From positions 121,363 to 185,362 of the IMG/VR virus record IMGVR_UViG_3300046008_000242: a DNA stretch of 64,000 bases; one strand, written 5' to 3'. A program made the position numbers and the translations under genes. This DNA comes from a virus. Its lineage: Duplodnaviria > Heunggongvirae > Uroviricota > Caudoviricetes. The notes beneath the pieces are model-generated. The model did no database searches. It worked only from the letters and a program-made list of their open reading frames with translations, and had not been told where the DNA came from. Positions 6,098 through 56,230 of the stretch are shown piece after piece. Position 1 is the first letter of the stretch, and every line of letters starts with the position of its first letter.

Positions 6098-7480
6098 TTA
6101 AAATGCTTGATGATACATACGAACTCTACCAAATTTAACCGTGCCAGACGCATTTGCTCCGAGCTTCGCGTCAAGATAACACTGTAACCCTGCAATACTA
6201 GCTACGTTTTCAGGAACTCTCAGTATAGGTGTTCTTACTCTGATTGAATATCCTTCTGACGCAGCTCTAACCGCTGACGTAAAATTACCACCAGCTACAG
6301 CGCAGCTAAGTTGCGTTGTTCCAAGAAAAGGTGTGTCAACTGGAGAAGTGCCAGATGTAAATGAAGCCAAAAGACTAACACCAACGTCTAATATATTGAC
6401 GGGATTTACGACAACTATATCACATTCCAAGAAGTATCTTGAACCACCGTAAATACAATCAGGAAACGTTGTTAATGGTGTTGGTGTTGCTCCATTCATC
6501 ATAAATCTAACTATATCACCATCGGTAGATGAAACAATTGTAGCAGATTGGAAGAATTCTTCTGAACCAACAGGCTGCTTCGCAATCACGAAATCGGGTG
6601 GTATTACATAATTCTCAGTATTGTCAAAAGTCCAAGTAGGTGTTCCAGCATTGTTAATTGACCGCCATCCATCAGCAAGATTACCTGTACCGTTTGTTTT
6701 TAATGCAGCTTGTCCTAGCGTTCCGCTTCTGAATGAAGAATACATAATTCTAAATGGCGTAAAATCTTTGTAAATATCAATGTTTTTTGAGCTGAGTGTT
6801 ACGGCAGATTTCATCGCTACCATTGCAGATTTTCCAATGCGTCTGCTTCCTTCATTTGATGGGTGTGTCCCATCGTTCATCATATTAGTGACTGCCACGC
6901 GGATAGTTGGTTGAGTCGAATCCCAAATTGCCGAAAATGAATCAAATACAAAAACAGAATTACTTGCTAGAGATGTTATAAAAGTGTTCAATCGGTCTAA
7001 TAATTGAATTTTTGAATCAGTAGGCGTTGATATTCCATTGTTAGGTAAAATAGTTCCGATTACAACTATTTTACCCGCAGCAATTAGTCGATTGATTCCG
7101 TTAGATATATGAGTTGATACCGATGTAAATGTGCTGTCTATAGTTGCTTGATTAGCTGCTGACGACATATTGATAACATCATTAGTACCAGTCATAAGCA
7201 TTACAACTTTTACGTCATCAGGAATGAACGATGTTCTGGTCATGATTGCTCTTGTCATGTCGCCAGAAATACCTAATTTACAAGTATATTCAAATGGTGC
7301 GCCAATGTACCAGTTAGCCCAATTCCAAATTGATTCCGCCGTTGCTGTGTTATAAACGCCAGAAGCCATTACTCTAGCTGTAATAGAATCACCAAGTAAA
7401 GCGGCTTTGATGTGAGACCCCCCCGTATTCACAGAGTTGAGAGATTTCAATGATGCGATGTTGATTAAATTTTTATTCAT
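6098..7480 (-). CDS. SGNH/GDSL hydrolase-domain protein with C-terminal carbohydrate-binding-like domain
   Basis: 'LLGDSIT', 'GTNDV', 'DGTHPS' motifs; starts MNKNLINIASLKSLNSV. Confidence 0.75.
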   Translation of the reverse strand: MNKNLINIASLKSLNSVNTGGSHIKAALLGDSITARVMASGVYNTATAESIWNWANWYIGAPFEYTCKLGISGDMTRAIMTRTSFIPDDVKVVMLMTGTNDVINMSSAANQATIDSTFTSVSTHISNGINRLIAAGKIVVIGTILPNNGISTPTDSKIQLLDRLNTFITSLASNSVFVFDSFSAIWDSTQPTIRVAVTNMMNDGTHPSNEGSRRIGKSAMVAMKSAVTLSSKNIDIYKDFTPFRIMYSSFRSGTLGQAALKTNGTGNLADGWRSINNAGTPTWTFDNTENYVIPPDFVIAKQPVGSEEFFQSATIVSSTDGDIVRFMMNGATPTPLTTFPDCIYGGSRYFLECDIVVVNPVNILDVGVSLLASFTSGTSPVDTPFLGTTQLSCAVAGGNFTSAVRAASEGYSIRVRTPILRVPENVASIAGLQCYLDAKLGANASGTVKFGRVRMYHQAF

Positions 7481-7617
7481 GTTAATTCCTTGTTACAACG
7501 TTTATTATTTTATTGCATTAACAAAGCATAGGTATCTGTTAATGGATTTGTGAAATAAATCAATTATATTTATTTAAACTAAAATATAATTGATTTGAAA
7601 TTACTCGCGGAGATAGC

Positions 7618-9138: not shown

Positions 9139-9738
9139 ATGCATTCACCATTTCCTGTGGCATATCTAGCATACCATATTGTAAGAGAGTATCTACATAA
9201 ATGAAGATTCATTAACAGTCATCGATATCGGTGGTTCCACTGGCAAGTTATTAGATGCCATACAGAAACACACTGATATTAAGATACATAAATTTGTCAA
9301 TATAGATCCCACTGTATTTGAACAATCAGTCGAAAATGAATATGTTGAATTCATACATGATAATGCACAAGATTATCTAAAGACAGTTAGAAATAAGGTT
9401 CAGATTATCCTTTCTATTTTTACATTACAATTCTTGGATAAACATGAACGAGCATTGATACTTGAACAGATTAAGGATAGATTATCTGATGATGGAGTAT
9501 TGTTTATCGCTGAGAAGTTTTACGTCGAATCTGCCGAGTATCAAGAATTGTATTGAGGAACATGAAACGTAAGTATTTTTCTGATTCAGAGGTATTGGAT
9601 AAGGATAACAAATTGTTGAAACATCTTAAATTGAAAACTGAACAAGAGTTTATCCTTGAGATGGAATCATATGGTTTCAAGGTTGTGAAGTATTGGAATT
9701 GTTTACATTTCAATGAGTTTATCTGTACAAAACAATAG
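9139..9738 (+). pseudogene. CmoA-like class I SAM-dependent methyltransferase, interrupted by two frameshifts (near 9200 and 9552)
   Basis: Manual translation: 'VIDIGGSTGKL' (motif I), 'FTLQFL...R...L..DGVLFIAEKF', 'MKRKYFSDSEV...YWNCLHF' follows the CmoA layout. Confidence 0.55.
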
Positions 9739-10178: not shown

Positions 10179-10534
10179 ATTTAGAACATACAAAGAAACA
10201 CCTTGAATCAATGTATGGAGATGATGAAATAATTGAATTCTGTAAATGGTATCTAGAATCACATTTTATCGGTAAGAATTACTTCGATATTACAGATGAA
10301 GAACTTTGGTTGAATGTAGATACAGAATTCAAATATGCATGCGTAGATCCATATGAAAAAGATAAACCGACTATCTGGTTGTTTGAAGAAGAACCAACAT
10401 ATGATTATCATGATGGAAGAAGTAATCCAGAATATTGGTTTAAATCAAATGTTGTTGGTATGGAACATCTAAAGATTACAGAATTTGTTATCGATGTTTC
10501 CGATTATAGAAAATCATTAAGAAAACGACCATAA
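10172..10534 (+). CDS. Hypothetical protein, tandem paralog of the previous gene
   Basis: See 9804-10178. Confidence 0.7.
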   Translation: MLDLEHTKKHLESMYGDDEIIEFCKWYLESHFIGKNYFDITDEELWLNVDTEFKYACVDPYEKDKPTIWLFEEEPTYDYHDGRSNPEYWFKSNVVGMEHLKITEFVIDVSDYRKSLRKRP

Positions 10535-14485: not shown

Positions 14486-14491
14486 AACAAA

Positions 14492-14539
14492 GCCGACTAT
14501 CTTAATAGGATAGTCGGCTTTCGATTGGATGAAATTTAT
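14492..14539 (+). repeat. 48-bp direct repeat copy 1, containing terminator GCCGACTATC-ttaatag-GATAGTCGGC
   Basis: Matches 15531-15578 with one mismatch. Confidence 0.9.
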
Positions 14540-14594: not shown

Positions 14595-14975
14595 GTGTTG
14601 AATGAAATGTCAACGTATAAGGCATCTAAGTTTGGGATAACATCTAATGACGTTAAAATATATTTCTCGATTAAAAATGCAAGTCATGGATGTAGGGTGA
14701 AAGCGTTTGTCGGTTCATTTAATTCTTCGGACGATTTCCAAATTTCTATACCAGATTGTAAAATAATAAGAGACACTAAATCTATACCAAATAATATAAA
14801 ACAAGAAATTATAGAATTCTGTATTAAAAATTCTTTTGAATTAGAACAATATTGGAAATATGGTAAAGATTATTCTTCAGAAGATTTTAATGATATGTTA
14901 ATTAGAATGAAATTGGACAAATCTGAAATTATAAAATCAAAAACAATTAAACTATCCTCGGTGTTAAAATTATGA
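14595..14975 (+). CDS. DUF4160-like small protein
   Basis: 'HGCRVKAF...IKQEIIEFC..N..EL..YW' pattern; ATG start probably 14607. Confidence 0.5.
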   Translation: MLNEMSTYKASKFGITSNDVKIYFSIKNASHGCRVKAFVGSFNSSDDFQISIPDCKIIRDTKSIPNNIKQEIIEFCIKNSFELEQYWKYGKDYSSEDFNDMLIRMKLDKSEIIKSKTIKLSSVLKL

Positions 14976-15463
14976 TGTTACATAACAATATACATTATTG
15001 TGCGAATTTATCAGATATAAAAAAGTTGGTATATTATTGGCAACCGTTAAATTCATTTAGAATATCCGTTAAAGATACATATTTATCAATGGATAATGGA
15101 TGTTTTGATATGCATTCTAAATGGTATGGAATACATCCTCATATTACATTCTTTCCGTCTGATAAACAAATTCATGATAAATGTTTAAAAATTTCCATAG
15201 TGAATTCAAAAATTGTTTATGATGGATTGCCGGAATTATCTATGGATACAAAAAAAGAAATTGTTAAATTTGTCTCATCATTAAAAAATCAATTTATACA
15301 TTTTTGGAATAATGGAGATTGTGATGAATTTTTAGATTACGATTATCTGGAATTATATCGCAATAGGATTATACATTCTTCATCAAAAATGTTGGAATGT
15401 AATATAGAATATAATTTACAACCATTAAAATCTCTATTGTTGAATCATTTGTTCGATGGATGA
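14972..15463 (+). CDS. DUF4160-like protein, distant paralog of the previous gene
   Basis: 'HPHITF...KKEIVKFV...FIHFW' pattern. Confidence 0.45.
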   Translation: MMLHNNIHYCANLSDIKKLVYYWQPLNSFRISVKDTYLSMDNGCFDMHSKWYGIHPHITFFPSDKQIHDKCLKISIVNSKIVYDGLPELSMDTKKEIVKFVSSLKNQFIHFWNNGDCDEFLDYDYLELYRNRIIHSSSKMLECNIEYNLQPLKSLLLNHLFDG

Positions 15464-15530
15464 TTATTTTAATCTTGGTGAGATTATTGACGGATACATT
15501 AGAAATATACAATTATTAAGAAATAAACAA

Positions 15531-15578
15531 GCCGACTATCTTAATAGGATAGTCGGCTTTTGATTGGATGAAATTTAT
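15531..15578 (+). repeat. 48-bp direct repeat copy 2 (terminator)
   Basis: Matches 14492-14539. Confidence 0.9.
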
Positions 15579-15805
15579 AGATATTTTATCCCAGAATATA
15601 CATAATTGTTTTGTTTATTTGTCCAATAATCCATCTTAGTGGAACGTTCCATATACAATCCAATCAACTCTACATCATGTAAAATAAACGTTGCATATAA
15701 TCCAAATATGAGCGATTGACAATATCGATGTAATATCTTAATCATCGAAAGAGTCTTGTGATAATTTTAGACATCGAGTCTGTATTATACAGTTAAAGAT
15801 ACTCC

Positions 15806-15834
15806 TTGACTTTTCGACAAAACATCGTTATAGT
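15806..15834 (+). promoter_or_regulatory. sigma70-type promoter A1
   Basis: TTGACT-N17-TATAGT. Confidence 0.75.
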
Positions 15835-15962
15835 AGACTATGTCGACACTTTGAGTTAGGTTCATTAATTGGTTTTAATATTACTACAACATAACTTAGA
15901 CTCTTATTTTAATCATATATTATCATAAATAATTGTATTATAACAATTAGAGGTAATACTCA

Positions 15963-16091
15963 ATGGAATTTAAGAATCAATACCATGGATTATTCGATAA
16001 CAGAATAGTGTTAGGAACTATCGGAGAAGGATATCTCTACGATTCATCAGATGTAACAGATTATCGATATACCATCACTTGGTTAAGATGA
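15963..16091 (+). CDS. 42-aa cargo ORF inside cassette A1 (MEFKNQYHGLFDNRIVLG...TITWLR)
   Basis: GAGGT RBS upstream; lies between promoter A1 and terminator 16098-16133; below the ORF-track cutoff. Confidence 0.55.
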   Translation: MEFKNQYHGLFDNRIVLGTIGEGYLYDSSDVTDYRYTITWLR

Positions 16092-16097
16092 CATTTC

Positions 16098-16133
16098 AAT
16101 CCTGTAATATGGAAACGTATTATGGGATTTTTA
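16098..16133 (+). terminator. Terminator of cassette A1
   Basis: AATCCTGTAATA/TATTATGGGATT stem + T-tract. Confidence 0.7.
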
Positions 16134-16373
16134 ATGCGTAAAGGTTTCTTATAACATCCATTATTTGCTCGTTAATGGACTCTAGTGGAATCTTTAATAT
16201 ACGGAGCAATCAACTCTATGTCATACAATTTAAACGAGCAGTAGCGGACAAATATGGTTGTTCCTTGTATATCCAATGTATCGAAAGAGTCTTAAGATAT
16301 TTTACTCGATGTGTAATGTATCGAAATGGTCATCTTAATCATCGAGTGTGAATTATACAACGTCTTAAAACTC

Positions 16374-16402
16374 TTGCCTTTTCGATAAAACATCGCTATG
16401 AT
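16374..16402 (+). promoter_or_regulatory. sigma70-type promoter A2
   Basis: TTGCCT-N17-TATGAT. Confidence 0.75.
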
Positions 16403-16408
16403 AGACTA

Positions 16409-16588
16409 TGTCGATCCTTTGAGTTATATCCGTTGTCTGCATTTAATTGTTTTTAATATTACTAAGACGTTTATTATTCATTAACTAATCATATTAAGAC
16501 GCTTATTATACATGAAAATTCCATATAAAATCTTTCGACTCCATTTAGATCCCGTTGAGAACCAAAAGTTCCTTCGGGATTTTTATTG
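16409..16588 (+). ncRNA. Predicted ~175-nt ORF-free transcript of cassette A2
   Basis: Bounded by promoter A2 and terminator ATCCCG...CGGGATTTTTATT (16549-16588). Confidence 0.4.
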
Positions 16589-16847
16589 GAGTCAATTTAC
16601 AGTATTCTGACATAGAACATTCCTTAATTCATCCATATAATGGACGTTAATCCACCTTAATGAAACATTCGGTGGATTACTCAATCAACTCTATGTCATA
16701 CATTTTTAACGAGCAGTAGTGAGCAATTATAGATGTCTACTGTAAATATAACATATCGAACTAACCTTCATGTATTATTTCGATATGTTAATCATCGAAA
16801 GAGTAACCTTAGACATCGAGTGTGTAATATACAACGTCTTAAAGTCC

Positions 16848-16876
16848 TTTCGAAATCCTAAAAAGAGTAGTATGAT
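16848..16876 (+). promoter_or_regulatory. Promoter A3 (TTTCGA -35 variant)
   Basis: TTTCGA-N17-TATGAT followed by the conserved leader. Confidence 0.65.
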
Positions 16877-16882
16877 AGACTA

Positions 16883-17028
16883 TGTCGATCCTTTGAGTTA
16901 TGTTCTTTAGGTGGCATTAATATTACTATATTATATTCTAGTGTAACTTAGACATTCATTTACAACAATATTCCCATATAAAATCCTTCGATCCAGAAAG
17001 AGTCGAGAAACTCAATCTGGATTTTTAT
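16883..17028 (+). ncRNA. Predicted ~145-nt ORF-free transcript of cassette A3
   Basis: Bounded by promoter A3 and terminator ATCCAGA...TCTGGATTTTTATT (16990-17028). Confidence 0.4.
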
Positions 17029-17268
17029 TGTGTATAATTTAACAATATCCAACCAAGAACATTCCTTAATTCATCTGTCATTTGGACGTTAATGGACTCT
17101 AGTGAAACGTTCTGTATATCATCCAATCAACTCTACATCATGTAAAATAAACGTTCCATATTCAACAATTATAGATGTCTACTGTTAATTCAACATATCG
17201 AAACCGTCTTAGAGATATCTTAATCATCGAACCCATATCTTATTGTATATTACAGGAAAAGAAAACTC

Positions 17269-17297
17269 TTGACTTTCTCGAGAAACTCCACTATGAT
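17269..17297 (+). promoter_or_regulatory. sigma70-type promoter A4, reading into the 17394-18730 operon
   Basis: TTGACT-N17-TATGAT. Confidence 0.75.
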
Positions 17298-17393
17298 AGA
17301 CTATGTCGATCCTTTGAGTTATATCCGTTACTGTCATTTAGTTTATTTTAATATACTAAGTGTCTTCCTCGACTTTATTATACATCATTTAAC

Positions 17394-17624
17394 ATGAACC
17401 AAGACACTATAACAAGGAAGATAGAAAACTGTATTAGACGTAAAGTGTTGTTCGAACTATCTTACAATAAAGAGAACACTTATGTCACTATCGATACAGA
17501 TATCCATAAGAATGATTTATCGATATTCGACATAAAAGAATTCGATATCTGGATGAAACAAAAGAACATAATATATGAACCAACAATTTCTGAAACAGAG
17601 TACCTAACCATTATAATAAAATGA
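17394..17624 (+). CDS. Hypothetical protein
   Basis: 76 aa; overlaps the next start (ATGA/TAA). Confidence 0.55.
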   Translation: MNQDTITRKIENCIRRKVLFELSYNKENTYVTIDTDIHKNDLSIFDIKEFDIWMKQKNIIYEPTISETEYLTIIIK

Positions 17625-17812
17625 AAGAAGAACAAGACTTAACATTATTGAAAAACGCAAAATCAATTTTAGAAGATACAATTCGATGTATCGACATGGA
17701 TTCAAATCTAGTTAGTTTTGAATTAAAAACATCTAAACTTAAAATTGTTAGAGCATTAGATTATCTGGATGAACTAGAAGAAAGAATGAGATTAGGAGAA
17801 ACAAATGTTTGA
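17621..17812 (+). CDS. Hypothetical protein
   Basis: 63 aa, coupled in operon. Confidence 0.55.
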   Translation: MKEEQDLTLLKNAKSILEDTIRCIDMDSNLVSFELKTSKLKIVRALDYLDELEERMRLGETNV

Positions 17813-18161
17813 TTTAACAGGAATAAATGATATGAATTCATGTTTTAATGAGAAAACTGGTCAATTTATAGATCCAAATTTCGATAGACATGATGATAGA
17901 CCATGGGATTATGAATTTACAGCAGATAGAGCTAGATTTATCTCTAATCGATATAATGATAAGATTAAACAATTTGTTGGATATTGGTTGTTTCAAATCA
18001 AGAAGAAAGCTGGCGAGGGTAAGCGAAGTTGTTCGTTCAAATACTTTTATAAAGGTGGATATGCTTACCAGAAAGAATCTCTTAACAGATTATTGGAATT
18101 GGGATATCTGGTTCGTTCCGTCAAAGAACCAGATGGTATTAGAATAATTGTAACATGGTGA
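17805..18161 (+). CDS. Hypothetical protein
   Basis: 118 aa, GGAG RBS. Confidence 0.6.
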   Translation: MFDLTGINDMNSCFNEKTGQFIDPNFDRHDDRPWDYEFTADRARFISNRYNDKIKQFVGYWLFQIKKKAGEGKRSCSFKYFYKGGYAYQKESLNRLLELGYLVRSVKEPDGIRIIVTW

Positions 18162-18730
18162 AATATATGAAAGGTTTAAATGTTGTTATCAATTCTAGAT
18201 TACTACAAGAAAGAACATCTGATGAAACTTACGGGGAATGGTATTCCGAATATAAAAATACATTGGCGAAAATTAAATTTACAGAATCTGCTCCTGATGT
18301 TGTTACGTCATTAGATGTTTCTGTAGGAGATAAACTCTATATTGTATGGATAGAATGGTCGTCTGGGGATTCATTTGGGACTTCCATTAGAGGAAATGTT
18401 GAGACATTGGGTGTTTTCAAGGACGAACAATATGCCTTGCGATTTTCGGAATTTGTTAAACAAACTGATGAAATAGAAGAATCGTTAAGATTATCATCTT
18501 CAACAATAAGTGTTCAATATCTTAGAGATAAATTTAAAAAGGAATTCCCTAAATTTGATAATGTTGAAATCAATTTAGTTGATAACAATAAACTATATTC
18601 TTGGGATAACGGATGGAGATTGACGTATAAAACAGAATGTGGTCAATCTATTGAATTTAGATATTTTCCATGGGTTGGTTATTTTGAAACATTAGAAGAT
18701 GTTAATGTCGATTATAAACACATTACATAA
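18155..18730 (+). CDS. Conserved hypothetical myovirus protein
   Basis: 'LYIVWIEWSSGDSFG...FPWVGYFETL' motifs. Confidence 0.6.
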   Translation: MVKYMKGLNVVINSRLLQERTSDETYGEWYSEYKNTLAKIKFTESAPDVVTSLDVSVGDKLYIVWIEWSSGDSFGTSIRGNVETLGVFKDEQYALRFSEFVKQTDEIEESLRLSSSTISVQYLRDKFKKEFPKFDNVEINLVDNNKLYSWDNGWRLTYKTECGQSIEFRYFPWVGYFETLEDVNVDYKHIT

Positions 18731-18770: not shown

Positions 18771-20358
18771 TTATGTGGTTGTTGCGTCCGTTATAATTCC
18801 AAGTGTGGCTAGTGTCGACAACAGTGATGTCAAGGCGGCACCAGATGATTTTGACCCTGTAACAGAGGGTGGTGTGCTTGGAATTAGTGGAATTGTATTT
18901 GTTGAAAGGTTGTTATTTACTCTTGAATAAAATGTCGTTTTTCCCGTTGTTTGATTTACATGACCATTCACGGCGTATCTTGAAATATCTCCACTAAAAC
19001 TAGGGTTTCCGTAACCTATAATGACACCTGATCCTCCTGACCAAGCTGGTGATACAAACAGTCCGACAGCTCCAGACATATCAGTTATCTGCATCCAGCG
19101 ATTTGTCCTAAGATAACCATCAAACCCAAAATTATCTGATTCAAACTTCGATGCCACTGTCTGTCCTTCTAGCTTTCTAACTACAAGTGATGCGGTTTTG
19201 ACCAAATTATTTGATACAACACTAGCTTGTGGATAGTTAGGCATACTGGTAAGCCCGACTATCTTTCCTATCTGCGCACCTAATTGTTCTCTTTCGGTTG
19301 CATTCACATGATTACCATCGTACGCATTATCTCGACTAAGAATATCTTCGTAACTACCTAACACCGAAAACGAATCCAAGAACATATTGTTTCGAGATTC
19401 GGCAATGTTTTTAATTGCTTGCCCTTCTTGGAAAGAAGGAGCATTGACTTTAGATAACCCAGCATCTATAACACCTGCTGTTGGTGCAATAAACAAGTAA
19501 TCTGAACCCGTCCATCCAGCATCGAATCTACTTAAAAGGACATTAAGACCATTACTCGTATCATTTATTAATGTGGCATTACCTTCTCTCATGTGATAAG
19601 TAGTTAAATCTGGAGCAATGTCCTGATAAAACTTTGTTAAAATTGCGGCTGGTGCAGATAGCGCGTTGACTAGACTTAATCCACCTACGGATAGTTGAAC
19701 TAAACAAACACCAGAAACAAGGGTGTTAACATATCCACAAGTCAATACGGGAACTACTCCGCTGACCGCAGTGATTTTAATGCGTCTAGCAACCACAGCA
19801 CCTACCGTAACTGTAGCAATTTGCAAATCTGGTGTAGCGTTACTTAGGTTGAATGTCCCAACTGTCGTCTGCACTACACCAGCATTGTCTACCAATTCAA
19901 CCAGAGCAGTACCTAATCCAACACCTTTCGCCAAGTAAGCCGTGAATTTTGTCCCAGTCATTGCGCTTCCAGAAGCTCCAAATGTGGCTGTTGCATTTGC
20001 TGACAATTCCCTATGACTCCCAATTGCCCAATACGCATAACTACTTACGGTAGTCACCGTTCCCGTTGATGAATCCATGGATATTCCACCTAAAGACGAT
20101 GTTCCGTCGCCGATTTGTGACCCTGCATAACCCACTACTCCAAAAGTATCTTTTAGGTTTCTTGAAATTGTTGTTGAACCAAAACCTGCAACAGAATCGC
20201 CAAATGTAAAGATAGTTGCCTGTGCGATAGTTCCGTTCACTATTTTATAAATCTTTTTATAAAACTTATTTTGGCTGTAAGTTAAATTGTCAACACCCCC
20301 CCCCATTCACGGAGTTGAGAGATTTCAATGATGCGATGTTGATTAAATTTTTATTCAT
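18771..20358 (-). CDS. SGNH-domain tail-fibre-like protein; the MNKNLINIASLKSLNSV start is out of frame at a 9-G run (20296-20304)
   Basis: 'FTFGDSV', 'DGNHVN', C-terminal 'VTGSKSSGAALTSLLSTLATLGIITD'; 5' region nearly identical to that of 6098-7480. Confidence 0.7.
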
Positions 20359-20402
20359 GTTAATTCCTTGTTAAAACGTTTATATAATTTACAATAATTT
20401 GA

Positions 20403-21549
20403 TTATATACCTAAATCTAAAATTGCTTTGGCTAGTTTATACACCAAGAACTCATGCCCTTCCGTTGTAGGGTGAGTTCCATCAGAAAGCACATACAAGT
20501 CGCAGTTTCCAACGCCAGTTGTAGTACCGACTCTACCTGTACCTGTCAACCAAGAACCTGTTACTACGTTATCTGTGTTATCTCCCATGCTATCTATAAA
20601 ATAAACACCTTTACTATGTGATAAGCTCTTTAATGCGCTATTTAAACTAAGTCTAGTGGAGCGGCTTGGTGACCAAGGTGACAACACAACAATCTTTGCC
20701 GCCGCTTTCCCATTAGTCTTAATATAGTCAATACATAAACCTGCTTCATCGATGATTGCAGCGTCGGTATTCGCTGTATCGTTTATACCGTTTGCGATAA
20801 TATACACATCAGCGGAAATTAAATCGGCGGGCAGTCTGTCGCGTAATTTTATTTTTGGAGTAGGCGCGGCAATATATCCTGTTGCGCCTACACCTGATGA
20901 AAATATACAAGCCCCTAAGATTCTCCCTAGATTAGCGGCATACCCATCAACATTACTTTGACTTGAGCCACCTTCTGTAAAAGAATCGCCAAAAATCTGA
21001 ATGGTCGGGTTTGTATTAGCGAATTTACCAATTGAATCTGTAGGTGATATATTTATTCCACCGAAAAACGTATTGCCTGCACATTCAATAGTGATATGTC
21101 TGTTTGCTCTACTTCCTAAGTCTACAAGCGTGTAATAAAGGCTACCGTTTGACGGGTATGAAGTTGTCGATGTGCTTATAAGAAGTCCATCAACTAGAAC
21201 TCTAATCGCGGCAGACGAACCCATCCCCTTTGTGTAAAATTCAAATTGTTGTCCATCAAAAACAAAATCTATAGTAGTTTGCCTGTATTGAATTTCCATA
21301 ATTAACACCCTGAGCTTTGTAAAAATTATAGTCGGGATAAGTTCCTCCCGCAACCACCATCGGAGCTGATATTGAGAATACGCTCGAAGATGGAGGAATC
21401 AATACTTTGTTTGCGATAACACTGGCAGCACCCGCAGTACCAAGTGTTATTGTTCCGTAGCCGGACAAGGGTTTGATTGGGAACATTTTATCAAATAACT
21501 TAATATGGTTGGGTCTCATTATATAATGATTGATTAAATTTTTATTCAT
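20403..21549 (-). CDS. SGNH hydrolase-domain protein, split by a +1 frameshift near 21278 (ORFs 21256-21549 and 20403-21353)
   Basis: MNKNLIN start; 'IFGDSFTEG', 'GIND', 'DGTHPT'; removing one A restores YGNSIQATTIDFVFDG. Confidence 0.7.
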
Positions 21550-21622
21550 GTTAATTCCTTGTTAGAATGTATATTCTTTTATATGTACGGCAATACTTTG
21601 TCTTTTATGCTTATCGCAGCAG

Positions 21623-50490: not shown

Positions 50491-51135
50491 TCATAGATCT
50501 TCAGATAGGAATTCTTCAATTTCTGTTTCATCAATATCCAATTCAGGAATATCAATTTCTTCAATTTTGGTTTCATCTTCCAAGAAATCCATTAACGAAT
50601 TTCGATGTTCCTTAATGGGTTTTTCTTTTATCTTCTTTTCGTAGTATTCAGAATAATCAGTTTGTTGATAACTTTTAATAATTTCAACATATTCTGTTAC
50701 AATGTCTTGATTATCGGTTTCATTTTCCAGGATAGAAGATAAATCAACATTTTTAATTAATTGTTGTCTAATGTATGTCTGTTTGCGTTCTTTGAGGATA
50801 CGCTGGACAAATGTATTATGTACAGAAGCAGTAATATACGAAAATGGTTGAGTAGAACGTTCTGGATCAAAAGAATCAAAATACTTGATGCCATTTAGGA
50901 TGGCATCTTGAATCATCTCATCTTTAAATGAATAACTAAAGAATCCAGGTCTGTTGGCATATTTGTGAGCAATTTTAATGATACATTCTGCTTGGTATCT
51001 AGTGATTGGTGGTTTTGGTTTACCTTCCAATTCGGCTTCCTTGATTAAACGTTTTCGTTCAACAATAGAATTATAAAGTTTTTCTTTGTTAACATATTCG
51101 CGTTTCTCTACTTCTTGTTTTGTTTCTTCCGTCAA
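50491..51135 (-). CDS. gp55: Late-transcription sigma factor gp55
   Basis: 'YVNKEKLY', 'RPGFFSYSFKDEMIQDAI.N...YFDSFDPE.S..PFSYIT....N.F.QRI.KE.KQ'. Confidence 0.93.
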   Translation of the reverse strand: MTEETKQEVEKREYVNKEKLYNSIVERKRLIKEAELEGKPKPPITRYQAECIIKIAHKYANRPGFFSYSFKDEMIQDAILNGIKYFDSFDPERSTQPFSYITASVHNTFVQRILKERKQTYIRQQLIKNVDLSSILENETDNQDIVTEYVEIIKSYQQTDYSEYYEKKIKEKPIKEHRNSLMDFLEDETKIEEIDIPELDIDETEIEEFLSEDL

Positions 51136-51215
51136 GATGGTTCTCCAAGGTTATTATTGAATAATCTATTATACTTGATTATTCATTTAATACAAGATTA
51201 TTAAGACATCTATAT

Positions 51216-51324
51216 ACATCCATTATTTGTCGTTTAACCAATGTTCATTCTATATAACATAGAGTTGATTGCTCTGTATACATAACGTTCCATTATAGTG
51301 GATTATTGGACAAATATGGATGTA
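51216..51324 (-). repeat. Solo copy of the ~105-bp inverted-repeat-bounded element found in the arrays
   Basis: CATCCATTATTTGTC...GACAAATATGGATG ends; internal CATAGAGTTGATTG box. Confidence 0.8.
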
Positions 51325-51453
51325 TTATAAGACATTATTACATGTAATTAAATCTATCAATACCATCTATACCGATATTGTATAAGATATAGTTGTTTCC
51401 GTCCACCAATAGATAAACTTCACCATATCTGAATTCACCTTTACCGCTTACGT

Positions 51454-53314: not shown

Positions 53315-54061
53315 CTATAACAATTTGATGATTTTGTTTAATTTCTTTTCAATCTTCTGTAGTTTAACATCCATCTCATTACGTTCCTGTTTTAATCGTT
53401 CATTTTCTTGTTTCAATTTTTGAATTTCTTTATCATGGGAACCTTCGATCTTACCTAGATAACCAGATGTTCTTGATTTGACTACATACAAATCGTTATC
53501 TACGATTGAGATAACATTGTCGAAATATGCGTTAAATAATGAACCTTGATATGGAGCATCGCGTTTATTTGTGACGACGCATAACAAATTATTTGTTCTA
53601 ACCAATTCTATCAATTCCATGCAGATTTTCTTTTTATCTTCGTATCCATCTGAAGACTTTGGAGATAGAGATTTGACGATACGTTCGATGTTATCAATCA
53701 ATAATGTTGTACATTTTAGATCGATGTTATAATCTCTAACCATTTTCTTTAACAGATAATCTATCCCATCAACTGTAATTTCACGCAAATCGATTATAAT
53801 AACTTTGTTACCATCTTTTTCCAGGATCTCCGTAATTGGTTGATAAATCGAAGAGGATATATTACGAAATCCTTTATATTGTTCGACTGGACTAGAACCA
53901 GCAAGTGTAATATGAATGATGTGTTGATTTGGTATAGATGAACCAATTTCACATAATGTTTTTGTCTTACCAGAGCCTTCAACTCCGTATAATATTGTTA
54001 ATTCTCTAGTTTCTAACATTTTATTCTTGTCATTGATTCGTTCTACAATACTTTTTGTCAT
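53315..54061 (-). CDS. Degenerate RecA/DnaB-like P-loop protein with C-terminal coiled coil
   Basis: Walker A 'GVEGSGKT', Walker B 'LLIDNI', 'VVKSR'. Confidence 0.6.
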   Translation of the reverse strand: MTKSIVERINDKNKMLETRELTILYGVEGSGKTKTLCEIGSSIPNQHIIHITLAGSSPVEQYKGFRNISSSIYQPITEILEKDGNKVIIIDLREITVDGIDYLLKKMVRDYNIDLKCTTLLIDNIERIVKSLSPKSSDGYEDKKKICMELIELVRTNNLLCVVTNKRDAPYQGSLFNAYFDNVISIVDNDLYVVKSRTSGYLGKIEGSHDKEIQKLKQENERLKQERNEMDVKLQKIEKKLNKIIKLL

Positions 54062-54242
54062 GTTTATACTCTCTATGTTGAATGGAAAACTACAGGATCT
54101 ATTATAAATGTTAAAATTGAAAAAGAAAGATAAAGTTTATACATTGAAATGATAGTCTATAAAATGTATAATAAACGCCTAAGTGTGATTGAAGTATATT
54201 AAACGTAAATAATAGACCTAACTCAAAACGTCGACATAGTCT

Positions 54243-54271
54243 AGTATAATGGAGTTTTATCGATTTCGAAA
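54243..54271 (-). promoter_or_regulatory. Promoter B1, reading into 54061 and the ligase
   Basis: TTTCGA-N17-TATACT + conserved leader. Confidence 0.65.
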
Positions 54272-54679
54272 GGAGTTTAAGACTCTGTTAATATCATACT
54301 CGATACATTATACCATCTTAAGACTATTTCGATGTGTTAAATTTACAAGAGATATCCATATTTGCTCACTACTGCTCGTTAAAAATGTATGACATAGAGT
54401 TGATTGGACCGTATATTAAAGATTCCACTAGGATGGAATAACGTCCAAATAACAGATGGTTTAATGTTTATTCTTAGTAGATAATCTGTATCCAATAAAA
54501 ATCCAGATTGAGTTTCTTGACTCTTTCTGGATCGAAGGATTTTATATGGGAATATTCGTGTAAATGATAGTCTAAGTTATGTTTAAATGTTGTATAATAA
54601 AGTCGAGGAATACACTAGAACATAATAAAGTAATATTAATGTCACCTAAAGAACATAACTCAAAGGATCGACATAGTCT

Positions 54680-54708
54680 ATCATACTACTCTTTCTACCA
54701 TTTCGAAA
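54680..54708 (-). promoter_or_regulatory. Promoter B2 (terminator at 54494-54532)
   Basis: TTTCGA-N17-TATGAT. Confidence 0.65.
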
Positions 54709-55153
54709 GGACTCCGAGACGATGTATATTACAGTTTCGACGTTTATTTGTATCCTTTCGATGATTAAGATATCGAAAGAAACGTCTTACGATGTTTCGA
54801 TATGTTGAATAAACAAGGAACATCTATATTTGGAGTTTAAACAACGATAAAAATGTATGACATAGAGTTGATTGCTCCGTATATTAAAGATTCCATTAAG
54901 ATGGATTATTGGGCAAATAACAGATGTTTGAGGAATGTTCTACATCAGAATAATGTAAATTGACTCCAATAAAAATCCCGAAGGAACTTTTGGTTCTCAA
55001 CGGGATCTAAATGGAGTCGAAAGATTTTATATGGAATATTCATGTATAATAAACGTCTTGATATGGTTTAGTTAATGAATAATAAGAGTCTAAGTTATGA
55101 TATAGTAATATTAAATGGCATTTAGAACATAACTCAAAGGATCGACATAGTCT

Positions 55154-55182
55154 ATCATAGTGGAGTTTTATCGAAAAGGCAA
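55154..55182 (-). promoter_or_regulatory. Promoter B3 (terminator at 54968-55006)
   Basis: TTGCCT-N17-TATGAT. Confidence 0.75.
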
Positions 55183-55666
55183 GAGTTTTATAGACGTTGT
55201 ATAATTCATGCTCGATGATTAAGATATTCCTTTCGATGTCTGAGATTACTCTTTCGATGATTAACGTATCGAAAGAGTACATGAAGACTGTTTCGATATG
55301 TTATATTTACAGTAGACATCTATATTTGGATTATATGCAACGTTTATTCTACATGATGTAGAGTTGATTGGATGATATACAGAACGTTCCATTAGGATGG
55401 ATTAACGCCCAAATAATGGATGTTATAACAGTTACCATTGAATGTATATTGTTAAATTATACTCAATAAAAATCCCACTCAGAAACTAATCTGGTGGGAT
55501 GCTTATGTCGAAATGAGGTTCGAAGGTTTTTATATGGGAATAATGTTGTAAATGATAATCTTAATATGATTAGTTAATGAATAATAAACGTCTAAGTTAC
55601 ACTAGAAAACAATATAGTAATATTAATGCCACCTAAAGAACATAACTCAAAGGATCGACATAGTCT

Positions 55667-55695
55667 ATCATAGTGGATATTCTACCATTTCGAAA
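55667..55695 (-). promoter_or_regulatory. Promoter B4 (terminator at 55465-55500)
   Basis: TTTCGA-N17-TATGAT. Confidence 0.65.
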
Positions 55696-55761
55696 GGAGT
55701 ATCGGATGTTGATGTTTACACATTCGATGTTATAGATTACCGATAAGACTCTTTCGATGTA

Positions 55762-56133
55762 TCAAATTATTGTTTCGATCGAAGTAATCTTAACATTATT
55801 TGATTTACGTCTATCCAACATATATTCATTATGGTTTAATCTAACAAAATGTTCCATGCCAGATTCAATGTTAAATTTACAGATAATCTCATACCTTCCG
55901 TCAACCAATTTAGAATTGTTAAATTTTCCATCCTTTACTCGTTTTTGGATGAAGTCAATGTTTGGGCTGAACCATTTAAATCTATTGGTGAAATCCAATC
56001 TATTGTTTGAATTATCATATTCCAATTTACACATAGCTCTATACAATATCATAGTACACCATTTATTTGTTGAATATGGAACGTTTATTTTACATGACAT
56101 AGAGTTGATTGCTCCATAATCATAACGTTCCAC
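55762..56133 (-). CDS. Hypothetical ORF embedded in cassette B4; its 5' end overlaps the repeat element
   Basis: 123-aa ORF; the first ~25 codons are repeat sequence, so the true start may be internal. Confidence 0.4.
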   Translation of the reverse strand: MERYDYGAINSMSCKINVPYSTNKWCTMILYRAMCKLEYDNSNNRLDFTNRFKWFSPNIDFIQKRVKDGKFNNSKLVDGRYEIICKFNIESGMEHFVRLNHNEYMLDRRKSNNVKITSIETII

Positions 56134-56230
56134 TAGAGTCCATTAACGTCCAATTAACAGATGATTTAAGAAACCTTTACGCAATAAAAATCCTCAATCA
56201 ACTTGTCAGTCAATTGAGGATCTTAAATTG

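Follow-up and report, generated by a model that had tools for sequence, protein, structure and literature searches.

The 64,000-nucleotide stretch of phage DNA analysed here (hereafter referred to as the window), taken from one virus contig of 249,362 bp (G000; 32% G+C) in which it spans bases 121363-185362, contains two tandem arrays, A and B, each composed of four copies of a cassette of about 450 bp. These arrays are two of seven such stacks in the genome. In every cassette, the parts follow the same order: a terminator, an upstream element of about 100 bp, phased TCGA boxes, a sigma70-type promoter, a +1 box (AGACTATGTCGA) and a U-rich leader. We consider, with moderate confidence, that these units are stacked cassettes controlling early, and probably middle, transcription, which would also act as recombination linkers for gene modules.

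The genes of the window include those for a gp5-like baseplate hub, a gp46-like SbcC protein, a DNA ligase and a gp55-like late sigma factor, which identify the source as a distant T4-like phage. The closest match to gp46 in cultured phages was found in cyanophages (43-44%), and no relative was detected by blastn among cultured phages. G000 DNA is present in lake-water metagenomes; searches with the whole stretch and with one unit listed no RNA sequencing run. Relatives were retrieved, with the exact leader pattern described below, from the IMG/VR contigs of one sample series. One of these relatives (G001) is a complete genome of 234,735 bp with terminal repeats, which has 288 open reading frames (ORFs) in common with G000, at a mean amino-acid identity of 69%. 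A contig from a different sample (G002) is colinear with G001, at 99.9%, over four stacks, including both those flanking an inverted module; the G001 layout was therefore assembled twice, independently. Scans of metagenome contigs and prokaryote genomes with the leader pattern yielded only chance matches, and those in prokaryote genomes therefore provide no clue to the host. No tRNA was found. Positions labelled G000 or G001 are whole-genome positions and all others are window positions; the unit coordinates of the eight window cassettes were assigned by script, with transcript spans measured from the first base of the leader to the end of the T-run.

Architecture of the cassettes

The leader pattern AGACTATGTCGAYnnTTTGAGTTA is present in eight exact copies in the window, against none expected (100 shuffles), and direct-repeat families connect the units both within the arrays and between A and B. 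The units lie head to tail and are 421-568 bp long, each running from a promoter to a terminator. The initial annotation of this DNA had described four units mirrored by four in array B, each with a fixed order of upstream element, TCGA boxes, promoter and leader, and this description holds for all eight. It had also reported a promoter spacer of exactly 17 bp, which was found in all eight window promoters and in 48 units over the two genomes.

The window promoters have TTGACT, TTGCCT or TTTCGA at -35 and TATAGT, TATGAT or TATACT at -10, as listed in that annotation. Two promoter classes can be recognised in both genomes: type I (TTGACTTTTCGA...TATAGT; TTGACT-17-TATAGT/TATGAT) and type II (CTCCTTTCGAAAT...TATGAT/TATACT), which has only TTTCGA at -35. 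The type II arrangement, TTTCGA-17-TAnnnT, is almost exclusive to the cassettes, with 16 occurrences inside versus four outside in G000, and 19 versus five in G001. A generic promoter and terminator scan, uninformative in such AT-rich DNA, found 15, against 15.4 expected. The TCGA boxes have near-constant offsets from the leader (+8, -21/-27, -61, -82, -97 and -122), which are the same in G000 and G001: four lie about 15-35 bp apart upstream, the fifth falls in the -35 box or spacer, and the sixth is inside the +1 box.

The +1 box is invariant in the 48 units of G000 and G001. In two distant T4-like IMG/VR contigs (L089 and L094), with protein identities to this phage of 33-51% (41% for gp46 and 51% for a TET-like protein), a single TTGACT-17-TATAAT promoter is followed by an identical AGACTATGTCGAT, a ribosome-binding site and a gene. 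Because this sequence is identical in two such distant contigs, the +1 box is the oldest and most constrained piece of the cassette, and its conservation is clade-wide. By eye, the box does not fit the consensus for NAD-capped start sites. In addition to its 24 units with exact leaders, G000 has a 25th (G000 ~10450-10530, minus strand), in which a 17-bp quasi-palindrome at the start site, GATAGACTATGTCGATC, reads as the exact reverse complement, with an intact promoter and an otherwise unchanged leader. This change looks like the product of a template switch or palindrome inversion, and points, tentatively, to a role of the +1 box as a symmetric site in DNA. An exact 12-mer, TCGAnAnAGTCT, is present in 40 copies in G000, 20 per strand, and faces inward on both sides of the promoter; at least ~35 of the 40 copies belong to cassettes (24 leaders, plus exact upstream copies in at least 11 units).

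These features raise the possibility that the stacks are protein-binding hubs, in which many strong promoters and phased TCGA sites would titrate a phage regulator or the RNA polymerase of the host, the stacks functioning as a promoter sink or as an operator array timing host shut-off or early shut-off. Such a role would be consistent with six boxes per unit at fixed offsets, one over the -35/spacer and one at +8, with a +1 box kept unchanged in 48 units and two distant relatives, with the exact inversion of GATAGACTATGTCGATC in one unit, as expected for a symmetric site, and with the 40 inward-facing copies of TCGAnAnAGTCT. However, the protein binding the TCGA boxes or the +1 box is only putative, and an inverted match at 10 of 12 positions between two conserved 12-mers in 330 bp would, by our estimate, be no rare chance event. 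We regard titration as quite unlikely to be the explanation; it also overlaps with, and is compatible with, a role for the units as transcription-control cassettes.

The upstream element, with the anchor CAATCAACTCTA 164-230 bp ahead of the leader, is present in every window unit. It had been described as bounded by an inverted repeat, and this part of the description was too general: TGGAACGTT...AACGTTCCA bounds the element in some copies only, and the G001 copies are bounded by a direct repeat. Most copies have a -10-like hexamer 3-4 nt ahead of the anchor. Solitary upstream elements also occur. At least five of them, over the two genomes, have their CAATCAAC anchor 48-57 nt ahead of the start of an ORF in the same orientation: G000 80877 (nucleotidyltransferase) and 177473 (the gene inserted in unit B4), and G001 58234, 224909 (HD hydrolase) and 143156 (orthologous to the gene that A4 reads into first). 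For the G001 counterpart of the B4 insert, this distance is ~77 nt, and two further solitary copies (G000 113227 and G000 172633) lie 120-135 nt ahead of ORFs in the same orientation. The latter copy, which lacks TCGA boxes and a leader, is in the window, upstream of the gp55-like gene (50491-51135, minus strand; phrog_234, E 3e-39), with a TATAAT promoter between the two. We infer that the upstream element may itself be a promoter for non-structural genes, the second in the cassette and one lacking a -35 box, in which case each cassette would be a two-promoter control region. Several other readings of this element were rejected. A minus-strand promoter (ATGACA-17-TATATT) was not conserved in G001, nor were minus-strand ORFs across the element conserved, and a TCCAT/ATGGA hairpin considered as an RNA helix had many C-A and flipped-half-site exceptions. 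By eye, CAATCAAC does not fit the strict IHF consensus, and TGGAAC does not fit a sigma54 -24/-12 promoter.

Six window units (A1, A2, A3, B2, B3 and B4) close with a hairpin and a T-run, keeping the frame ATCC...GGATTTTTATT, and A4 and B1 read into genes, in agreement with the initial annotation. Downstream, the hairpin follows the +1 box after ~130-170 nt, and the next promoter is reached ~250-300 bp further on. The leader is U-rich, extends over ~95 nt and is the same in empty and gene-bearing units. Given this likeness of the first ~95 nt, hardly anything other than a terminator separates a leader from the upstream element that follows, and the repeat is most aptly seen as a succession of stacked control regions.

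Stacks, cargo genes and module rearrangements

G000 contains seven stacks, at about 9.7-11.7, 40.1-43.8, 76.6-77.6, 96.3-97.3, 137.2-138.7 (A), 175.6-177.0 (B) and 209.5-210.8 kb, occupying ~5% of the genome. G001 has 23 units in seven stacks, of 5, 2, 5, 4, 2, 2 and 4, with the same part order, TCGA offsets and promoter classes. The leader-pattern search yielded a relative with different unit numbers and stack sizes in which the architecture is conserved; the initial annotation had proposed a search for relatives of this kind. Leader variants are genome-specific (GATCCTTTGAG in G000, GACGTTTCAG or GACGGTTTGAG in G001), a pattern that is the signature of concerted evolution. The features of the window are listed in Table 1.

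Table 1. Window coordinates of the cassettes of arrays A and B and of associated features
Feature	Position	Strand	Content
Array A	15600-17390	+	four cassettes; leaders at 15835, 16403, 16877, 17298; spacing 568/474/421 bp
A1 upstream element	15609..15705	+	anchor CAATCAACTCTA 15661-15672; -10-like TATAnn 3-4 nt before anchor
A1 TCGA boxes	15725, 15745, 15774, 15814, 15843	+	boxes-to-leader part 15725..15858
A1 promoter	15806..15834	+	TTGACT 15806-11, 17-bp spacer, TATAGT 15829-34
A1 leader	15835-15858	+	
A1 cargo	15963..16133	+	42-aa ORF 15963-16091, GAGG ribosome site, terminator hairpin and T-run ~16098-16133
A2 upstream element	16155..16251	+	
A2	16281..16587	+	six TCGA boxes, TTGCCT 16374-79, 17-bp spacer, TATGAT 16397-402
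A2 leader	16403-16426	+	ORF-less U-rich body; terminator end 16587; 185 nt
A3 upstream element	16630..16726	+	
A3	16756..17029	+	six TCGA boxes, type II TTTCGA 16848-53, 17-bp spacer, TATGAT 16871-76
A3 leader	16877-16900	+	ORF-less body; terminator end 17029; 153 nt
A4 upstream element	17072..17168	+	
A4	17198..17393	+	TCGA boxes, TTGACT 17269-74, 17-bp spacer, TATGAT 17292-97
A4 leader	17298-17321	+	5' untranslated region continues into ORF at 17394
A4-driven operon (predicted)	17394..18730	+	four genes (76, 63, 118 and 191 aa), no known function
Solitary upstream element	51190..51325	-	G000 172633; without TCGA boxes or leader
Array B	54200-56200	-	four cassettes; leaders at 54242, 54679, 55153, 55666; spacing 437/474/513 bp
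B1	54219..54458	-	upstream element 54362-54458, TCGA boxes, leader 54219-54242
B1 promoter	54243..54271	-	type II TTTCGA 54266-71, 17-bp spacer, TATACT 54243-48
B2	54494..54926	-	upstream element 54830-54926, six TCGA boxes, type II promoter
B2 leader	54656-54679	-	ORF-less body; terminator 54494-54541; 186 nt
B3	54968..55422	-	upstream element 55326-55422, six TCGA boxes, TTGCCT-17-TATGAT
B3 leader	55130-55153	-	terminator 54968-55015, identical to that of A2; 186 nt
B4	55465..56163	-	upstream element 56067-56163, inserted gene 55762-56058, TCGA boxes, type II promoter
B4 leader	55643-55666	-	terminator 55465-55512; 202 nt

Sixteen units of G000 are terminated. Fifteen of these are ORF-less, with spans of 153-202 nt, and the sixteenth is A1, with its small gene; most of the remaining units read into co-oriented genes, one reads into the next unit, and unit G000 40623 runs antisense into a convergent gene. 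The gene-less fraction is about two thirds in both genomes (15-16 of 24 units terminated in G000, 15-16 of 23 in G001), and a conserved ORF was found in only one terminated unit per genome (A1 and G001 unit 162985). The view of the units as mostly empty stands, with the addition of the genes carried by A1 and B4. The 42-aa ORF of A1 is 75% identical to the ORF in the syntenic G001 unit 162985, and had no family match. The gene inserted in B4, between the upstream element and the TCGA boxes, encodes a 98-aa protein of unknown function (phrog_22386, E 2e-20) and occupies the same place in G001, with 80% amino-acid identity.

In six of the seven stacks, the last unit reads into co-oriented ORFs with ribosome-binding sites; the exception is stack 2, in which unit 40623 runs antisense into a convergent gene and a lone unit nearby, 43784, is terminated. 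In the window, the operon downstream from A4 stops against convergent late genes, and B1 reads into a gene for a 248-aa ATPase-like protein (53315-54061) and then into the ligase/gp46 operon. The first genes of stacks 1 and 7 (G000 ~9300-9510 and 209060-209255; G001 41520 and 228520) are paralogs of 63-67 aa with a hydrophobic N-terminus and a conserved SEC/PEC motif, and their products may be small exported early proteins. Elsewhere in the window, two 50-bp terminator copies (14490-14539 and 15529-15578), 98% identical, bracket two ORFs (14595-15463), which look like a two-gene cassette inserted into a terminator. Three minus-strand genes (7417-7513, 20295-20391 and 21530-21582) have a near-identical 5' region and first codons (MNKNLI...), with a run of 7-9 C ahead of two of them.

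Apart from arbitrary contig ends, ORF synteny between G000 and G001 is broken at exactly six points, all of which lie inside stacks (G000 9507|10810, 39747|40690, 76178|77729, 94954|97389, 135847|138756 in A and 174666|177124 in B); the seventh stack is colinear. The module order M1-M8 of G000 corresponds to M1, M2inv, M3, M6inv, M4inv, M5inv, M7, M8 in G001. The difference concerning M2 is explained by a single exchange between the inverted stacks 1 and 2, and the G001 arrangement of this region was confirmed by G002. When each window unit was divided into five segments, the nearest neighbour within G000 differed by segment and was nearly always in another stack. For A2, for example, the nearest neighbours were u11724 for the upstream element (0.90), B3 for the promoter (0.94), u77119 for the untranslated region (0.95) and B3 for the terminator (1.00). 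With mosaic units and with breakpoints falling inside them, the stacks are thus sites of frequent patchy gene conversion and rare large exchanges. The suggestion of a shuffling cassette system, one of three put forward in the initial annotation, is supported by the breakpoints, the differing unit numbers and the mosaic units.

Repeats of this kind may also mislead assembly, and we considered the possibility that the tandem arrangement or the module rearrangements are artefacts of a dispersed repeat. Logan contigs from three lake-water runs all break within the repeats; in the best-matching sample, none of the short-read contigs spans a stack, so that unit order is neither confirmed nor refuted, and the many apparent joints stem from the alignment of paralogous units to this array. 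G000 is, moreover, a single assembly. Against this, unit-specific pieces were recovered from the best-matching sample at 100% identity and with even depth, G001 and G002 agree over four stacks from two samples, and the head-to-tail order is always kept, with the junction between last unit and gene intact. The units within a stack are only 65-85% alike and are therefore not collapsed copies, an outcome that the initial annotation had named as a potential refutation. An artefactual origin is very improbable.

According to the interpretation of the units as transcription-control cassettes and module linkers, the last copy of each stack would start an operon of non-structural (prereplicative-type) genes, and each internal copy would run into the terminator of the next, giving only a non-coding leader RNA of ~150-200 nt. 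The predicted intrinsic terminator has A-tract and U-tract flanks and looks bidirectional. Transcription is predicted to start within AGACTATG early, at all units, and at CAATCAAC later. Patchy gene conversion would keep the 24-25 copies per genome alike, and the cassettes would be crossover points for the inversion and transposition of 10-35-kb modules between G000 and G001, so that start and stop signals would double as module linkers. The stacks would be both a product and a substrate of phage homologous recombination, and their retention may reflect a benefit from promoter dosage and from the insulation of modules from one another.

Several points weigh against this interpretation. Promoter use, start sites and termination are all predicted from sequence. 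The type II -35 box (TTTCGA) is poor, and its activity with the host RNA polymerase alone is doubtful. The G000 module order rests on a single assembly, repeats being classic places for mis-joins, and individual G000 junctions or breakpoints could be assembly choices or co-existing inversion isomers. Furthermore, ~15 gene-less units, with at least two units per locus, are kept in both lineages, the stacks taking up ~4% of a size-limited genome, and this retention of empty units hints at a function of their own, which is left unaccounted for; the linker role also leaves the six phased TCGA boxes and the invariant +1 box without explanation. Each of three possibilities (a regulator binding DNA, a decoy RNA in high abundance, activity as an origin) would explain part of these features. 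The orientation of the last unit of stack 2 (G000 40623, plus strand) towards the 3' end of the convergent gene is itself conserved (G001 73919, plus strand; contig L014), and this unit may be a source of antisense RNA.

Gene-less units and their predicted transcripts

The five ORF-free transcripts proposed in the initial annotation for A2, A3, B2, B3 and B4 have spans of 185, 153, 186, 186 and 202 nt, respectively, and contain no in-frame conserved ORF. We aligned the 30 terminated transcripts of G000 and G001, which range from 138 to 202 nt. They have in common the 24-nt leader, TATATTACT as a short block, between one and three AGAC...TTTAT modules, a block rich in A and the hairpin; the sequence connecting these parts is a mosaic with many indels. 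The conserved blocks occur in all three frames relative to the leader ATG, and this ATG was rejected as a gene start, as the frame that follows it has only four codons in G000 (MSIL/MSTF/MSTL) and, in G001, 4-55 codons without homology; the transcript bodies are therefore considered non-coding.

No excess folding was detected for bodies without the hairpin, relative to dinucleotide shuffles (mean minimum free energy z-score of +0.33, versus -2.2 for transcripts including the terminator hairpin). RNAalifold identified compensatory pairs in the terminator helix only; small leader helices are invariant within genomes and different between genomes. The block rich in A (ATAAAATC, ahead of the hairpin) pairs with the U-tract, and can therefore be read as the A-tract of a bidirectional-type terminator. 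There was no window match to Rfam at the gathering score, the best hit by E-value scoring 29 bits against a 60-bit cut-off. In the absence of excess folding, of covariation outside the terminator and of an Rfam match, the small RNA array among the initial suggestions is not supported in the sense of a structured RNA family. An unstructured U-rich RNA is possible. The bodies are 74% A+T, and the predicted RNA is 42% U and 10% G.

The empty units could be genes for such an RNA, abundant, of ~150-200 nt and with ~15 gene copies per genome, which would be a decoy or sponge for a host factor that binds RNA (Hfq, RNase E or a defence sensor) or would have a regulatory effect exerted by its conserved 5' end. 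A promoter and an intrinsic terminator are predicted for every unit, the lengths fall within a narrow range, the empty fraction is close to two thirds in G000 and G001 alike, although their proteins are 69% identical, and the short blocks TATATTACT and ATAAAATC are kept in both. The usual layout of an Hfq-type RNA, an AU-rich single strand followed by a terminator hairpin with a U-tail, is also that of these transcripts. Nevertheless, there is no folding or covariation beyond the terminator and no Rfam match, the first ~95 nt are the same as the 5' untranslated region of gene-bearing units, and the ATAAAATC block is accounted for by the A-tract flanking the terminator. The mosaic bodies contain many indels and have a best cross-genome identity of 0.71 versus 0.63 for a shuffled best-of control, and many ordinary orthologous intergenic regions score higher. 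A decoy RNA is an unlikely explanation.

The weak constraint on body sequence would fit an element defined by composition only, as in an R-loop replication origin. T4 oriF and oriG need only a promoter and a sequence-nonspecific unwinding element, at which an R-loop forms, and oriE consists of an early promoter with evenly spaced 12-nt repeats (PMC3016281). By a loose analogy, RNA remaining annealed at the AT-rich element would prime the leading strand, with the TCGA boxes as iterons; the segment after the promoter has 74% A+T and is a little less structured than its shuffles (z-score of +0.33), and the boxes are repeated about two helical turns apart. However, the 24 units far exceed the approximately five origins used by T4 (PMC3016281), an RNA so rich in U and poor in G would form weak RNA:DNA hybrids, a terminator closes each transcript, and the same promoter and leader drive ordinary operons. 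The Pfam models MotA_activ, MotCF and AsiA had no match in the genome, and no TGCTT box is present at -30. The GC-skew extremes near arrays 3 and A merely follow changes in gene orientation. Origin function, also among the initial suggestions, is decidedly unlikely, and neither this role nor that of an abundant unstructured decoy RNA has obtained positive support.

More broadly, that the gene-less units are functional in their own right, as a ~15-copy gene family for an abundant unstructured U-rich RNA or as multi-copy start sites for transcription-primed replication or recombination, has a low but appreciable probability. The RNA would soak up a host RNA-binding or defence factor, and under either possibility the units would be kept in at least two copies per module border in both lineages.

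Comparison with known phage systems

Regulatory cassettes doubling as recombination linkers are thought to drive the modular evolution of large phages, and the linkers described to date are compact PeSLs swapping single small genes and CP220 repeats of uncharacterised function. The cassette described here is much larger, with perhaps two promoters, a phased array of putative binding sites and a clade-conserved +1 box; it heads prereplicative-type operons starting at stacks and marks the points at which 10-35-kb modules are inverted or moved. It would provide a natural system for studies of the co-evolution of transcription signals and genome architecture in jumbo T4-like phages, of the factor reading TCGA boxes in a T4-like phage without MotA/AsiA, and of whether empty promoter-terminator units are selected or are by-products of recombination.

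Stacked promoters ahead of early genes are familiar from T7, in which A1, A2 and A3 are strong, tandem promoters for the host polymerase. The T7 promoters differ from the stacks in being present at one locus only and in having no terminators between them. The T4 origins resemble the units in combining a promoter reading into an AT-rich, sequence-unconstrained segment with short spaced repeats nearby; the differences lie in the copy number of 24, the terminated, U-rich and G-poor transcripts, and the lack of a Mot box and of MotA/AsiA.

The architecture had been presented as one not previously described, and this is accurate for its details, but not for its kind, as two comparable systems are known (PMC2839356, PMC4122927, PMC4546147). 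In the Campylobacter group II phages CP21, CP220 and CPt10, the repeat regions RR1-RR4 consist of 72-86-bp units with a core of 13 nt, arranged in two arms. They have not been assigned a role as promoters or terminators, and the word "promoter" is absent from the paper (PMC4546147). As in the seven stacks here, long repeat regions separate modules whose orientation is reversed in relatives, the number of units is variable, genes are enclosed by some of the regions, and single units are found elsewhere. However, the short units of the Campylobacter phages, placed in two arms, contrast with the head-to-tail promoter-to-terminator cassettes of 421-568 bp.

The PeSL and PmSL cassettes of T4-type phages (Arbiol et al. 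2010, PMC2839356; Comeau et al. 2014, PMC4122927) are the other such system. PeSLs are compact, with a stem-loop inside or beside the -35/-10 boxes, and number ~50 per genome; each lies directly ahead of an ORFan with a Shine-Dalgarno sequence, and they mediate single-gene indels in hyperplastic regions, with mini-circles generated by exchange between neighbouring cassettes (PMC2839356, PMC4122927). Shared features include repeated promoter and terminator motifs dispersed in a T4-like genome, sigma70-like early promoters with N17 spacers, transcriptional insulation, and homologous linkers at the places where relatives differ, as seen here in the six of six breakpoints, the unit numbers and the mosaic units. 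The present unit differs in its length of ~450 bp, with an upstream element, six TCGA boxes, an invariant +1 box and a long leader, and in its hairpin, which lies ~130-170 nt downstream of the start rather than in or beside the promoter. About two thirds of the units are gene-less and stacked two to five deep, rather than placed directly before an ORF, and the events at the stacks are inversions and transpositions of 10-35-kb modules.

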